NCBI GenBank assembly: GCA_030599585.1
Contig: JAUVNS010000006.1
Coordinates: forward strand, 64,001-128,000
From: Promethearchaeota archaeon
Lineage (GTDB): Archaea > Asgardarchaeota > Lokiarchaeia > Sigyniarchaeales > SOKP01
Direction of reading: 5' to 3'
Length of the DNA: 64,000 bases
Shown here in pieces: positions 39,019 to 55,881 of the stretch; position 1 is the first letter of the stretch, and each line of letters starts with the position of its first letter. The notes beneath the pieces were generated by a model, which saw only the letters and a list, made by a program, of their open reading frames with translations, did no database searches and was not told the DNA's origin. The position numbers and the translations under genes are program-made.

Positions 39019-40929
39019 ATGCCTTCTCCAATAAATTACCCCCCTAAAGAGGTTATAGAACCTATCTTTGGTAAAATTAACTTTGAATTAGTAATACTCT
39101 GGATGCTTAATAACAACGAAGTATGTACGTGGTCGAATTTAAAAAAAAAGATCAAACCTTCAACATTATCGATTTATCTAAAAAAACTTTTGTTGACAGA
39201 GTTAATTGAAAAGAAAGAATTTAATCAATATACGATAACAACAAAAGGGAAAGACAGATTTTATGAACTATCGCAGGCCACGAGACAAAAAAGGAAGTTA
39301 AATTACCCCCCCAAAGCAATTTTGTGGAAACGGAATTACGATCATTGGATATTATGGATGGTTTACAACAATAATTTCTGTAAATGGGGAGATTTACTGA
39401 ACGAACCTCTTTCAATTAATAATTCCTCATTATCTAAAAATATGAATGCCTTAATTGAAGACGGATTTGTCAAGAAAAAAAATAAGGAGTATAGGATTTC
39501 TCAATTGGGTAAAGCTGAATATTCTGTAATGCTGAGGGATTACGATTTAGACCGTCAATCGATTTTGGAAGACGAAAGTAATCGAATCAAAGAAAATACA
39601 ATAAAAACATTGAAATTTTTCAAAAAGTATAGAATAAGTGAAGATGAAACTAGATTTCGATTTCTCAATAACCTTTTGAGATTACCCCACGAAAGAATCA
39701 AGCAATCTTTAAAAAGTGAAGAAGATTTCTTCAAAATACTTCTATATTTATCCCTCAATCATCCATCACATTATCCTATCTCTATTTCAACTGAGAAATT
39801 TGCTAAAAAATATGGGTTAGAATTAGTAGTTCTAGAGTTTCATGTTTTGCAAATTATTGATAAAAAGATTTTCCCTGTTAAATTTTTCAAATTGGAGGGA
39901 GATATTGATAAGATATATTATTTCCAGGCTAATGAAAAGCTTGAAAGGATGTTAAACGCCGTAGTCGAAGAACATATCACAAAATTTACCTACTTAAATA
40001 GATTGTATGAAGAAGATAAAGATAAGACCTACTCAACAACTTTAGAATCTACAATAGATGCGATATTAGACGAAGTTTGCGGTTCACTTTTTCATGAAGG
40101 TCAGCGCTCTTCTTTAAAGAAGTTGTTACCAAGTTATATTGCTTACTTGGCCTACAAAGTGGAAAAAGAGAAAAAGTTGATTGACACTTATGACAAGTTA
40201 AGGGGTTTAATATGGCATGAAGTACAGACCTATAGTTCGAAAAAATATTTACTTCAAGAATTCACAAATTACGACGAGAATATTAAAGAAGTGGATAAAG
40301 CCCTAAGCTTAAATCCTGACCAGTTTGACAGTTATGTTGATAAAGAGCGCGTGTTAATTTACTTTAACAAGTACGATGAATTATTAACATTTTTAGATGA
40401 AATGCTCGAAAAATTCCCCGATGAAGAGAAGGACATCAAAATTAAGGTTGCCTATATTTATAAAGAGAAAAGAAATTTCGAGGAAGGGCTTAAAATTATT
40501 AATGAATTGCTCGAAAAATACTCAGAAGATACCGAACTTCTTACTTATAAAGCTTATTGGTTACAATATTTAAATCGAAAAGAAGAAGCGGTAGAAATAA
40601 TTCAAAACCTAATCGAACAAGACCCTGATAACAACATTTATCATGATACATATGGTGAAATGTTAATGTCCTTCCAAGATTATGAAAATGCCAAAATTGA
40701 GTTCCTCAAAGCCATCGAAATAAGCTCAGACGAATGGTTTACATTCCAAACGCACATCAAGTTAGGGATATGTTATAAAGAACTTGGTAAGTTTAAGTTA
40801 GCACTCGAAAAATTGGAGTCTGGAATTAAATACGCAGAGAATAGTAAATCTGATTTAGAAACAAAAAAAAATTGGCTTGCCATTGCTAATCTCTTTATTG
40901 CTGAAATTGAAGAATCAAAAGAGAATTAA
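39019..40929 (+). CDS. Tandem winged-helix + TPR protein (putative transcriptional regulator)
   Basis: Two internal repeats (NYPP..ILWM.NNN.C.W..L....STLS..L..L....I.K....Y.I...GK), then C-terminal TPRs (YHDTYGE.L...YE.A..EFLKAIE). Confidence 0.8.
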   Translation: MPSPINYPPKEVIEPIFGKINFELVILWMLNNNEVCTWSNLKKKIKPSTLSIYLKKLLLTELIEKKEFNQYTITTKGKDRFYELSQATRQKRKLNYPPKAILWKRNYDHWILWMVYNNNFCKWGDLLNEPLSINNSSLSKNMNALIEDGFVKKKNKEYRISQLGKAEYSVMLRDYDLDRQSILEDESNRIKENTIKTLKFFKKYRISEDETRFRFLNNLLRLPHERIKQSLKSEEDFFKILLYLSLNHPSHYPISISTEKFAKKYGLELVVLEFHVLQIIDKKIFPVKFFKLEGDIDKIYYFQANEKLERMLNAVVEEHITKFTYLNRLYEEDKDKTYSTTLESTIDAILDEVCGSLFHEGQRSSLKKLLPSYIAYLAYKVEKEKKLIDTYDKLRGLIWHEVQTYSSKKYLLQEFTNYDENIKEVDKALSLNPDQFDSYVDKERVLIYFNKYDELLTFLDEMLEKFPDEEKDIKIKVAYIYKEKRNFEEGLKIINELLEKYSEDTELLTYKAYWLQYLNRKEEAVEIIQNLIEQDPDNNIYHDTYGEMLMSFQDYENAKIEFLKAIEISSDEWFTFQTHIKLGICYKELGKFKLALEKLESGIKYAENSKSDLETKKNWLAIANLFIAEIEESKEN

Positions 40930-53919: not shown

Positions 53920-55881
53920 CTAATGAAAAATCTCTTTTATTAACGGTCCAAGTGACGGGACATTTTTTAATTGTACTACTCGACACGCCTGATTAAATTT
54001 ATTAAAAGTTTTCCATATGTTTTCATCCTTCTTAAAATTATCAATAAAGCTTTTGAGTTTCTGCTGGGCTAAATATGATTGACCTTTAAATAAATAACAT
54101 ACTAAAAAAGGAGAAATTGAATCCATAATGATAGTATACTCCCCAAAATTAGCTCGATTAAGGCCCTCAGAAAATACTTCAACACTAAACGAATTTACGG
54201 CGGTTAGAAAACCTCCAAAAAGGTTTTCTTCAAATGACCATTCTTCCACAAATGATTCTGAAAATACAGGGCTTCCATCTTTTGAAATAATTAAAAGTAT
54301 GATAGGTTCTTCATCATGTAAATCAGGAAGTTCTAACTCTCGTTTTCGAACCATTTGCCCCATTTGTTTGTTTAAACGAGCTAATTCCATGCGTTCGGCC
54401 AATGATATATCTGAAGCTTCTAAGTTCTCCCACATGTTTAACTCTTTAAGTAATTCATCATGGTCATTCGAGATTTTTCTAGCCAATAAATCGAGTCCAA
54501 ATTTCTCTGCTATTTGTTGTCCTTGAGTTAGCAATCGTCGAGCTTCTTTCAAATCTAATGATAATAAAGCCAATTTAGCTTGTAAAAGGTAAGTTTCTCC
54601 CATAATCCAGTGTGAATGCGATTTTTCAGCAATTTCTAATAACTGACCAATATATTGTTTTAACTCATCCAACACCCCCTGATCATTAGTTATGCGTAAC
54701 TCAGTTAGGAGCAATTCACATAAGTTAAGTAATACTGTATACTTACTTTCAAAATCTAAATTTTCATCTTCAAGGAACTGCGTATATATCTCTTCAGCTT
54801 TGCCTCGATCACGAGCCCTAAGACTTGCTTTCAACACCAAAGCTTTATTATGAAGATATGCTAAATTAATATCTTCGTCTTTTAATTGATTTTTCATTTG
54901 TTCCATTTCATGAAGAGAAATCTGTGCTCGCTCAAGATCACCTTTATCAATTAAAATTTGAATTAAATAATGGTAATTATCAGCTAGCCAAGTTAATTTT
55001 CCCAACTCACGATGTAGTGCCATGGATTGTCCTATACACTCCAATGCTCGTTCAAGTTCTCCTCCCATCCTATAGGCGTCAGATACATTGTTAAGAACCC
55101 ATGCCAACCTATCTTTATTGTTAAGCTCCTTGAAAAGTACTAAACTTTGTTCGTAATTTCTAATACCTCGATCTAAATCACCTTTAGCGTGAAATAATTG
55201 CCCTAGAAACTTAAAGCTAGAAGCAATGTAATATTTTTTCCTACTTTCTTTAGCAAGAACTAAACTTCGCTTGGCATATTTTAAAGCACGATTCAGTTCA
55301 CCTATAATTAAGCGAGTCCATGCCATCTCACCAAGGACTTCGGCAATTTCATGCTTAATCCCCAATTCTTCTCGCAATGCTAAGCTGTGCTCCAAGTATT
55401 TTAACGCAAGATCTGCGTTTTTCGGGGTTCTTCCTCCTCTTCTACTGCAAAGAAATCCTTTTATAAAAGCTAAATAAGCCTCTCTTTGCTTGTAGGCTTT
55501 TGTTAATTTTTGCGGAATAGTTTTTATTAGTTCTTCTCCTTGTTTAATCAAATCAAAAGCTTCAGCAAATTTATTAAGCATTGCTAATGCATGTGTCATT
55601 ATAAGTAAGCTGTCGACTTTAAGGAAAATGTTTTCTAGTCTTCTGCTTTCTTTATAAATTTGCTCAGCGAGTTTAATAAGCTCTTTGAGCTTCCCTTGCC
55701 AAAATAGAATTTTACATTGAAGTAGATGACAGGATGCTTTATCATGATGGTTGAGCCCTTCTTTCTGCTCGTAATTATTCAAGAGTGTGAGAGCCTCATC
55801 AAGCTTACCTTCATCAATGAGACTATTTACTTTACTCAATTCTTCAGGTTTTTTGCCTTCTATTACTGGTTGATCCGTCAT
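53920..55881 (-). CDS. TPR-longin-like protein (class B)
   Basis: TPR repeats (ALKYLEHSLALREELG, YEQSLVLFKEL), ISNDHDELL..L.MWE, C-terminal LFGGFLTAVNSFS.EVF. Confidence 0.8.
   Translation of the reverse strand: MTDQPVIEGKKPEELSKVNSLIDEGKLDEALTLLNNYEQKEGLNHHDKASCHLLQCKILFWQGKLKELIKLAEQIYKESRRLENIFLKVDSLLIMTHALAMLNKFAEAFDLIKQGEELIKTIPQKLTKAYKQREAYLAFIKGFLCSRRGGRTPKNADLALKYLEHSLALREELGIKHEIAEVLGEMAWTRLIIGELNRALKYAKRSLVLAKESRKKYYIASSFKFLGQLFHAKGDLDRGIRNYEQSLVLFKELNNKDRLAWVLNNVSDAYRMGGELERALECIGQSMALHRELGKLTWLADNYHYLIQILIDKGDLERAQISLHEMEQMKNQLKDEDINLAYLHNKALVLKASLRARDRGKAEEIYTQFLEDENLDFESKYTVLLNLCELLLTELRITNDQGVLDELKQYIGQLLEIAEKSHSHWIMGETYLLQAKLALLSLDLKEARRLLTQGQQIAEKFGLDLLARKISNDHDELLKELNMWENLEASDISLAERMELARLNKQMGQMVRKRELELPDLHDEEPIILLIISKDGSPVFSESFVEEWSFEENLFGGFLTAVNSFSVEVFSEGLNRANFGEYTIIMDSISPFLVCYLFKGQSYLAQQKLKSFIDNFKKDENIWKTFNKFNQACRVVQLKNVPSLGPLIKEIFH

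Follow-up and report, generated by a model that had tools for sequence, protein, structure and literature searches.

The window, a 64,000-nucleotide stretch of contig JAUVNS010000006.1 from a Promethearchaeota archaeon (positions 64,001 to 128,000), contains five paralogous genes whose products combine a long N-terminal arm of tetratricopeptide repeats (TPR) with a C-terminal domain of predicted longin fold. These TPR-longin genes, designated P0001 to P0005, all lie on the minus strand as intact open reading frames (ORFs), in the company of Ras/Rab-like small GTPase genes and of genes for proteins that join a winged helix-turn-helix (wHTH) to TPRs (Table 1). Longin domains and small GTPases play a central part in the membrane traffic and nutrient signalling of eukaryotes; to our knowledge, Asgard archaea are rich in both, with almost no cognate pairs known.

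Table 1. Features of the window and of related loci. Positions are those of the window unless a contig (C) or locus (L) precedes the coordinates; aa, amino acids.
Feature	Position	Strand	Details
Second small GTPase, same subfamily	38221..38772	-	63% identical to the candidate cognate GTPase; adjoins seven-transmembrane (7TM) genes
wHTH-TPR protein	39019..40929	+	636 aa; Pfam wHTH and TPR; convergent with P0001
P0001, TPR-longin, short form	40926..42644	-	572 aa; 20-helix TPR solenoid, linker helix, longin; from ORF and translation
Longin-equivalent stretch of P0001	40929-41360	-	
wHTH-TPR remnant	42826..43098	+	90 aa, C-terminal TPRs only; phmmer E 6e-40 to the 39019 protein; TPR matches
Ras/Rab-like small GTPase, candidate cognate partner	43154..43714	-	186 aa; Pfam Ras 3.1e-38
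P0002, TPR-longin	43884..45713	-	609 aa; GTPase gene directly downstream
Longin-equivalent stretch of P0002	43887-44330	-	
88-nucleotide upstream element	45732-45819; 47659-47746; 49576-49663; 51339-51426	-	AGGAA-N7-TTCCT inverted repeat plus A/T-rich box
P0003, TPR-longin	45817..47658	-	613 aa counted from TTG
Longin-equivalent stretch of P0003	45820-46251	-	
P0004, TPR-longin	47744..49558	-	604 aa
Longin of P0004	47747..48181	-	C-terminal 145 aa; model residues 17-145
Beta-lactamase-family (serine hydrolase) gene	49816-51006	-	fourth-copy remnant lies upstream, same strand
Remnant of a fourth tandem TPR-longin copy	51232..51426	-	88-nucleotide element and ~37 codons, then stop
wHTH-TPR paralogue	51870..53816	+	648 aa; convergent with P0005
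P0005, TPR-longin	53920..55881	-	653 aa; convergent with wHTH-TPR gene
Longin-equivalent stretch of P0005	53923-54360	-	
Loci with four-transmembrane (4-TM) and secreted neighbours	C20:340143-346476 (own genome); L063, L065, L073-L075		
Weak longin-profile matches, own genome (examples)	L026:1468-1884; L028:1282-1698; L035:1477-1872	-; -; +	
TPR-longin-TIR variants, genome G017	L058:6463-8817; L059:6476-8959	-; +	ends of tandem arrays
Architecture-variant proteins	P0216, P0184, P0127, P0147		TIR, kinase and CN-hydrolase types

The five proteins (572-653 aa) could be aligned over their full length, P0001 being one TPR pair short and P0005 one pair longer; the start of P0003 is probably the ATG at 47640, in line with the MS.S.SK starts of the other copies. 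The alignment and its sliding-window identity agreed with the initial annotation, which had described a shared late TPR, an EHD.LL..L..WE linker and a C-terminal domain behind divergent N-termini; the linker is a helix (EHD..LL..L..WE) and the C-terminal domain spans ~130 aa. The first ~300 residues are only ~30% identical, and nearly all of the 88 invariant columns fall in three places: the last TPRs, the C-terminal domain and, between them, the ISxEHDxLLxxLxxWE helix. Mean pairwise identity was 0.30-0.41 over columns 1-420, 0.57-0.65 in the last TPR and linker, and 0.5-0.6 in the core of the C-terminal domain, with corresponding column entropies of 2.12 bits (TPR helices 1-16), 1.39 bits (last TPRs plus linker) and 1.65 bits (longin). 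Conservation was thus strongest not in the longin but in helices 17-19, comprising the last TPR and the EHD helix (1.24-1.28 bits), which suggests a fixed hinge between arm and longin. A similar gradient separates P0004 from its closest public relative (P0156, 84% identical overall), with 70-82% protein identity over residues 1-300 and 91-94% beyond residue 300, so that divergence along the proteins is non-uniform by each of these measures, as had been anticipated. The reported near-identity of P0003 and P0004 over the last ~110 aa was likewise recovered (88-100%, or 0.88-0.97 in 40-column windows, against ~30-60% upstream). The C-termini are conserved in the sense that all five copies share the domain; the implied uniformity did not hold, the longin of P0002 being of a different type and just 42% identical to that of P0004. 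Apart from the TPRs, Pfam recognised no NTPase or effector domain in P0001-P0005, and the sole NTPase nearby is the separately encoded small GTPase.

The longin nature of the C-terminal domain, already suggested by the initial annotation, is indicated by its predicted fold, Pfam being silent. None of the five domains (last ~145 residues) matched any Pfam family, the longin families PF13774 and PF19036 included, even at E up to 10, and a PDB sequence search with the domain profile returned only noise (E 0.28 or worse). An alignment of 142 sequences, obtained from a search of 1.84 billion representatives, nevertheless gave an AlphaFold2 (AF2) model of the P0004 domain with a predicted local distance difference test score (pLDDT) of 85.3 and a predicted template-modelling score (pTM) of 0.79. 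By DSSP, strands occupy residues 17-25, 30-35, 67-70, 73-79 and 83-90, and helices residues 43-60, 93-109, 111-123 and 133-144. This b-b-a-b-b-b-a-a(-a) topology satisfies the longin order b1-b2-a1-b3-b4-b5-a2-a3, and it recurred in a full-length P0001 model built from a shallow alignment (pLDDT 76.5). In a VIA structural search against the PDB, the best match was the VAMP7 longin (Z 12.7; 118 aa aligned, root-mean-square deviation 3.3), followed by synbindin (12.1), the AP2 mu N-terminus (11.8), Sec22 (11.8), CPLANE (11.7) and TRAPP (11.7), all spanning the entire domain (residues 17-145); Foldseek retrieved AP2 sigma (E 8.6e-5), zeta/delta-COP and Mon1-Ccz1. As the scores for longins of SNAREs, TRAPP, adaptins and CPLANE fall within 1 Z of one another, no longin subfamily is singled out. 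A Roadblock/LC7 identity (a-b-b-a-b-b-b) was ruled out, as in the model no helix comes ahead of strand 1 and strand 5 is followed by three. Roadblocks also matched more weakly (MglB Z 10.4, over residues 15-119 only; Asgard roadblocks 8.1-8.7), their coverage being limited to the sheet and first helix. A sequence bridge was provided by stand-alone proteins of 132-139 aa from the same genome, retrieved by the domain profile at E 1e-7; two of the three tested exceed the cut-off of Pfam Fuz_longin_1 (PF19036; 33.4 and 32.0 bits against 26.1), and hhalign gave the bridge to the Pfam longin a probability of 96.4%. On the strength of the modelled fold and this link to Fuz_longin_1, the C-terminal domain of the TPR-longins is a predicted longin.

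In the arm, Pfam detected TPR families only within the first two thirds of the proteins. TPR_12 passed in all five; TPR_MalT (PF17874, cut-off 45 bits) passed in P0002 (48.7), P0004 (49.5) and P0005 (50.3), with P0003 (43.8) and P0001 (34.9 bits) just under the cut-off. The arm was modelled as 20 helices with pLDDT mostly 80-95, and its structural matches were LGN/Pins (best, Foldseek E 1.5e-7), Rap (template-modelling score 0.69, normalised by target), NprR and MalT domain III. All four of these hold peptides or small ligands in the TPR groove. The odd-numbered ('A') helices were slightly more variable than the even-numbered ones (2.11 vs 1.90 bits, p 0.011), a weak difference based on a crude proxy for the groove.

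The array is physically linked to a particular group of GTPases. The GTPase gene at 43154 lies 169 bp downstream of P0002 on the same strand, and its product has motifs G1-G5 and the catalytic Gln (DIAGQ), with no C-terminal Cys and no lipid-anchor motif. Its subfamily comprises six of about 55 Ras-like proteins in the genome; three of the six adjoin TPR-longin genes and one adjoins a wHTH-TPR gene. The wHTH-TPR family, with five members in the genome, likewise recurs beside TPR-longin genes. In the window, the stop codons of the wHTH-TPR gene at 39019 and of P0001 overlap by 4 bp (40926-40929), and the second convergent pair, formed with P0005, is separated by a 103 bp gap. The sample was widened to 36 TPR-longin genes from this genome and from loci of eight other genomes of the genus. 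A unit consisting of a wHTH-TPR gene, one to five TPR-longin genes and a subfamily GTPase recurred at loci of seven of the eight other genomes. A subfamily GTPase was found within 3.5 kb of 21 of the 36 genes, and in eight cases it follows directly on the same strand, no more than 300 bp downstream; chance proximity was estimated at ~1%, given about six such GTPases per 4-5 Mb. A wHTH-TPR gene lay within 1 kb of nine of the 36, mostly in the convergent arrangement seen twice in the window.

Other copies of the module have additional neighbours, namely a conserved four-helix membrane protein of ~131 aa (MTEIKK...KKEWEEIKL...IKQRS) encoded just upstream of the TPR-longin gene, and a secreted protein of 210-250 aa encoded between the TPR-longin gene and the GTPase. 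Both were sought in the window and found to be absent from it.

The family extends well beyond this locus. The genome (4.85 Mb, 52 contigs) holds seven full-length copies, five in the window and one each on contigs C1 and C20. Within the genus, a genome carries between 0 and 12 copies, of which as many as seven may stand in tandem; among 251 sampled Asgard genomes, the domain was found in 106 (E up to 1e-15), with a maximum of 15 copies. A search of sequence representatives returned 1065 clusters at E up to 1e-3, of which 221 remained at a threshold of 1e-30, the members being mostly 560-700 aa long with the longin at the extreme C-terminus. The public records derive from metagenome-assembled genomes labelled Promethearchaeota, Thor-, Hod-, Heimdall- and Hermodarchaeota, and bear the names 'tetratricopeptide repeat protein' or 'hypothetical protein'; more than 1000 sequence clusters named merely as TPR proteins thus conceal a longin domain. 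P0004, used as the query in a pattern-based search of the genome contigs, yielded no relative, and nothing specific came from NCBIfam. Some relatives are extended behind the longin by a TIR domain (proteins of ~745-830 aa in several clusters) or by a Ser/Thr kinase; another variant has its longin at the N-terminus, ahead of a CN-hydrolase. The TIR part matches TIR_2 (E about 1e-16) and, weakly, ThsB-like and ThsB/SAVED-TIR models. Because relatives append a TIR or kinase in this position, the longin is probably a GTPase-coupling module and not the terminal output.

The initial annotation had interpreted the array as a diversifying sensor repertoire with a constant output domain, comparable to ligand-binding or immune-like receptor arrays. 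Read in this way, the TPR groove would be under positive selection and a constant longin would transmit the signal. Several observations are compatible with it: the N-terminal 300 residues evolve two to three times faster than the remainder, the TPRs are of the class found in peptide and ligand sensors, the 'A' helices vary slightly more than the 'B' helices, and the copy-number comparison among relatives that it called for gave 0 to 15 copies in tandem arrays, some of which include TIR variants with matches to ThsB/SAVED-TIR models. The substitution rates nevertheless gave no signal of diversifying selection. By the Nei-Gojobori method (NG86), the ratio of nonsynonymous to synonymous rates (dN/dS) in 14 pairs, in many of which dS is near saturation, was 0.18-0.55 for the TPRs, 0.05-0.33 for the last TPR and linker and 0.06-0.22 for the longin. 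Pooled 20-codon windows from eight independent pairs reached a maximum of 0.69, with peaks at P0004 residues 91-130, 161-190 and 241-300, so that every value measured stays below 1. Moreover, the window proteins have no NTPase or effector domain, and P0001, P0004, P0005 and the GTPase had no match in PADLOC-DB 2.0 (2023 library). At the level of regions and windows, these data point to purifying selection that is weaker on the outer TPRs, acting in a family that also evolves by tandem duplication.

The phylogenetic history also departs from that of a rapidly diversifying array. In trees from quick IQ-TREE searches, in which the relatives are not independent of one another, P0002-P0004 formed their own clade among the sampled loci in both the full-length and the N-terminal trees (Shimodaira-Hasegawa-like approximate likelihood ratio test, SH-aLRT, 100). 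P0001 grouped with a ~560-aa subfamily of four other species, and P0005, the C20 copy and the C1 copy each grouped with relatives in other species. Since the subfamilies of most copies extend to other species, the array is not one of fast turnover, and most of the paralogues are old. An immune-like repertoire is therefore considered unlikely, and the family is better described as a candidate GTPase regulator than as a proven receptor array.

Neither is the longin constant, as it has been exchanged among paralogues. The longin tree unites P0001, the C1 copy and a gene of genome G008 (SH-aLRT 99), and separately three tandem genes of genome G017 that belong to differing TPR subfamilies. The TPR alignment rejects the P0001/C1/G008 clade (log-likelihood difference 107; approximately unbiased (AU) test, p-AU 7.5e-62), a clade picked after the trees had been viewed. 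P0001 and the G008 gene share 88-94% DNA identity over the last ~175 codons (proportion of synonymous differences, pS, 0.09-0.35) and 39-55% before that. P0005 and its G017 relative are closer in the TPRs than in the longin, being sisters in the TPR tree and not in the longin tree. P0002 combines a TPR arm of the P0003/P0004 clade with its divergent longin, which differs from that of P0004 more than the TPRs do (proportion of nonsynonymous differences, pN, 0.35 vs 0.30). Such conflict between TPR and longin trees shows module swapping among paralogues, whereby TPR arms recombine against a longin-plus-GTPase cassette. What stands of the repertoire idea, at the level of the family, is a set of exchangeable sensor arms on a conserved coupling module; the constancy of the output does not. 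Obligate heterodimers of two longin types were also considered and found to be unsupported, several genomes having one type only among the fetched loci, whose sampling is incomplete.

The same conflicts raise the question of whether the conserved C-termini arose mainly by concerted evolution, that is by gene conversion, in which case variable N-termini and constant C-termini would have no functional meaning. The grouping in the longin tree of same-genome paralogues that the TPR tree splits (P0001 with the C1 copy, and the three G017 genes), the AU rejection of the clade with P0001 and the C1 copy and the near-identical 3' ends of P0001 and the G008 gene behind unrelated 5' parts all speak for exchange. 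However, the near-identical tails in the window were not homogenised recently. Between P0003 and P0004, the tail has a nucleotide identity of 0.76-0.87 and uses the same codon for identical amino acids in 0.50-0.69 of cases, no more often than the rest of the gene, and synonymous-site identity is no higher at the 3' than at the 5' end. Their longins differ at pS 0.63 and pN 0.08 (omega about 0.06), compared with pS 0.55 and pN 0.30 in the TPRs. The combination of high pS and low pN in the longin indicates an old divergence under strong purifying selection, and the synonymous divergence and codon use rule out recent gene conversion of these tails. The low longin dN/dS in all pairs and the three longin residues that are invariant across 142 diverse members (Gly28, Arg67 and Gly91) are further reasons to regard concerted evolution as a quite improbable explanation: exchange occurs, yet it fails to account for the conservation.

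Co-variation with the neighbouring GTPase was examined in 11 adjacent pairs. GTPase distance correlated with longin distance (Mantel r 0.55, p 0.007) and less with TPR distance (r 0.27), and in one pair the longins (distance 0.15) and GTPases (0.18) are close and the TPR arms unrelated (0.69). Alike longin-plus-GTPase cassettes with unrelated TPR arms would also suit a receptor repertoire, and the reassortment of sensor arms against such a cassette is an evolutionary pattern more familiar among immune and signalling receptors.

Taken with the architecture and gene linkage, these results favour the interpretation, to which we assign a probability of about 0.6, that TPR-longins are modular adaptors coupling TPR-bound partners to a cognate Rab-like GTPase. 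The N-terminal MalT/LGN/Rap-like superhelix would bind a partner protein or peptide, and the longin would physically engage the separately encoded GTPase, whose gene is usually just downstream. It would probably act there as a GTPase-activating protein (GAP), a guanine nucleotide exchange factor (GEF) or a nucleotide-state-specific platform. Paralogues with different arms could thereby feed different partners into one GTPase switch, the adjoining wHTH-TPR protein possibly serving as the transcriptional arm or as a regulator of the module.

Among these activities, the leading guess is that of a GAP, for which the longin offers candidate residues. Besides the three positions noted above (142 of 142 members), Asp66 is conserved in 137 of 142. 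Gly28 lies in the strand 1-2 hairpin and Asp66-Arg67 in the loop between helix 1 and strand 3 (a1-b3), and the stand-alone longins of the genome have no Arg67 equivalent in the hhalign alignment. The eukaryotic longin GAPs FLCN, NPRL2 and SMCR8 place an Arg finger beside a Gly-Pro where strand 2 begins, and comparable motifs have been noted in some Asgard longins (PMC12290439). By analogy, the family-invariant Asp-Arg, with the invariant hairpin Gly alongside, might supply GAP activity. P0002 and the GTPase at 43154 constitute a clonable candidate pair bearing this invariant candidate catalytic Arg, which makes archaeal longin GAP/GEF activity directly testable.

Several observations weigh against the coupling of TPR-longins to a cognate GTPase. 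Fifteen of the 36 genes, including the solitary C1 copy, have no subfamily GTPase within 3.5 kb. Of the 81 genomes of the family, 77 encode the GTPase subfamily, among them complete genomes devoid of TPR-longins, so that the GTPase does not need these proteins. The longin/GTPase co-variation rests on 11 non-independent pairs and, given that the 3' end of the longin adjoins the GTPase gene, this proximity could itself yield the correlation, which is hence supportive and not decisive. As to catalysis, the strict GP dipeptide of GAP longins is absent; a Pro at G+2 occurs in 64 of 142 members (45%), being present in P0001 and P0005 and missing from P0002-P0004. Finally, Pfam and the model reveal no DENN or extra longin domains of the kind found in heterodimeric eukaryotic longin GEFs and GAPs.

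A more elaborate version of the adaptor scheme is doubtful, and is offered tentatively. The wHTH-TPR protein, the TPR-longin and the Rab-like GTPase might together constitute an Asgard-specific switch, resembling a disassembled STAND- or ROCO-like protein. In it, a cue received by the TPRs would be relayed through longin GAP or GEF activity, involving the invariant Arg, to the GTPase and on to a transcription factor or a TIR or kinase effector. If this were true, it would be the first prokaryotic longin to serve as the coupling device of a sensor array, and a living model for the pre-eukaryotic origin of longin control over Rab and Rag GTPases.

The combination of a solenoid with a longin and its linkage to a GTPase also recall vesicle coats, and a trafficking-type module recruited to membranes by its GTPase, possibly a forerunner of the AP/COPI coat adaptors, was weighed. 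The best Foldseek longin matches are indeed sigma-adaptins and zeta/delta-COP, AP mu and sigma also rank near the top in VIA, and other loci of the module encode a small 4-TM protein along with a secreted one. Nonetheless, VIA favours no one type among the longins of SNAREs, TRAPP, adaptins and CPLANE (all within 1 Z), the solenoid consists of TPRs of the LGN/Rap/MalT type, unlike the HEAT trunk of adaptins, the GTPase carries no motif for a lipid anchor, and neither an appendage nor a cargo-binding mu-homology domain is present, which makes this origin highly improbable.

Among known systems, the closest parallels to a GTPase-coupled longin are the eukaryotic regulators, which include the GAPs FLCN-FNIP, GATOR1 NPRL2-NPRL3 and C9orf72-SMCR8 and the GEFs Mon1-Ccz1, Fuzzy-Inturned, HPS1-HPS4 and the TRAPP core. 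TPR-longins share with them the longin fold (Z 9.9-11.7 to Mon1-Ccz1, CPLANE, BLOC-3 and TRAPP) and the genetic association with a Ras-superfamily GTPase. The invariant Arg and hairpin Gly are reminiscent of the Arg finger and GP motif of the GAP longins (PMC12290439), and related stand-alone longins of the genome pass Fuz_longin_1. They differ in that one longin follows a TPR arm of ~420 aa, DENN and additional longin domains are absent, as is the strict GP, heterodimers are known for the eukaryotic proteins, and the partner is Rab/Ras-like and not Rag or Arf.

Within the Asgard archaea, 130 Roadblock/longin asCOGs (Asgard clusters of orthologous genes) with many lineage-specific fusions have been reported, as have operons in which roadblock or longin genes accompany those of Rab-like GTPases (Liu et al., 2020, 10.1101/2020.10.19.343400; Tran et al., 2024, PMC10933270). 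The same studies list longin-GTPase, longin/roadblock-GTPase and longin-TRAPPC3 combinations, DENN operons, and NPRL2-like longins fused to two-component domains. The TPR-longins belong to the same superfamily expansion in the same phylum, and no text in the library searched mentions a fusion of this type. Our literature searches found no TPR-longin family, fusion or three-gene module; both the family and the module thus appear to be previously undescribed in the searchable literature, whereas longin expansions, fusions and GTPase operons are known.

LGN/Pins/AGS3 follow a shared logic, in which a peptide-binding TPR superhelix precedes a C-terminal G-protein-binding module. This is an analogy only, as GoLoco motifs are short peptides that bind G-alpha-GDP, are not longins, and the C-terminal parts are not homologous. 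The RRNPP receptors (Rap, NprR, PlcR) and MalT domain III have TPR superhelices alike in size and curvature, and the HTH-TPR protein next door recalls the RRNPP architecture. Unlike them, however, the TPR-longins have neither HTH nor phosphatase, no signalling peptide gene was identified and, in contrast to MalT and other STAND proteins, there is no NTPase. The MglA-MglB pair offers a prokaryotic precedent for a small GTPase gene beside a longin/roadblock-superfamily regulator (MglB, Z 10.4). MglB is nevertheless a stand-alone roadblock homodimer (a-b-b-a-b-b-b), whereas the domain described here is a longin with C-terminal helices fused to TPRs, and the neighbouring GTPase differs from MglA in retaining the catalytic Gln.

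Among the related genomes, four of genus g11 in the same family (G049, G060, G141 and G181) carry 6-15 TPR-longin matches (E about 1e-26) but just one GTPase of the window subfamily; their TPR-longins may have another GTPase as partner, or none at all. Elsewhere in the present genome, at least 21 further weak matches to the longin profile occur in ORFs of 140 to 1935 aa. These include the stand-alone longins and, in the window, the tail of a 7TM protein (37807-38157; E 0.0019 in the genome search). The 7TM tails (36006-38193) were not accepted as members, the likeness being weak (hhalign probability 34%).

The island also preserves traces of lost genes. The wHTH-TPR remnant located between P0001 and the GTPase gene, being the third of its kind, indicates that the island formerly held three wHTH-TPR/TPR-longin units. 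The remnant of a fourth tandem TPR-longin copy is 73% identical to P0004 residues 3-39, and its DNA is 82% identical to the 5' end of P0004. The serine hydrolase gene sits where the body of the lost gene used to be, and may now be under its orphan promoter. This remnant shares the conserved 88-nucleotide element with P0002, P0003 and P0004, the only other genes it precedes (P0001 and P0005 lack it). With its inverted repeat, the element is a candidate operator, perhaps for the wHTH-TPR proteins.

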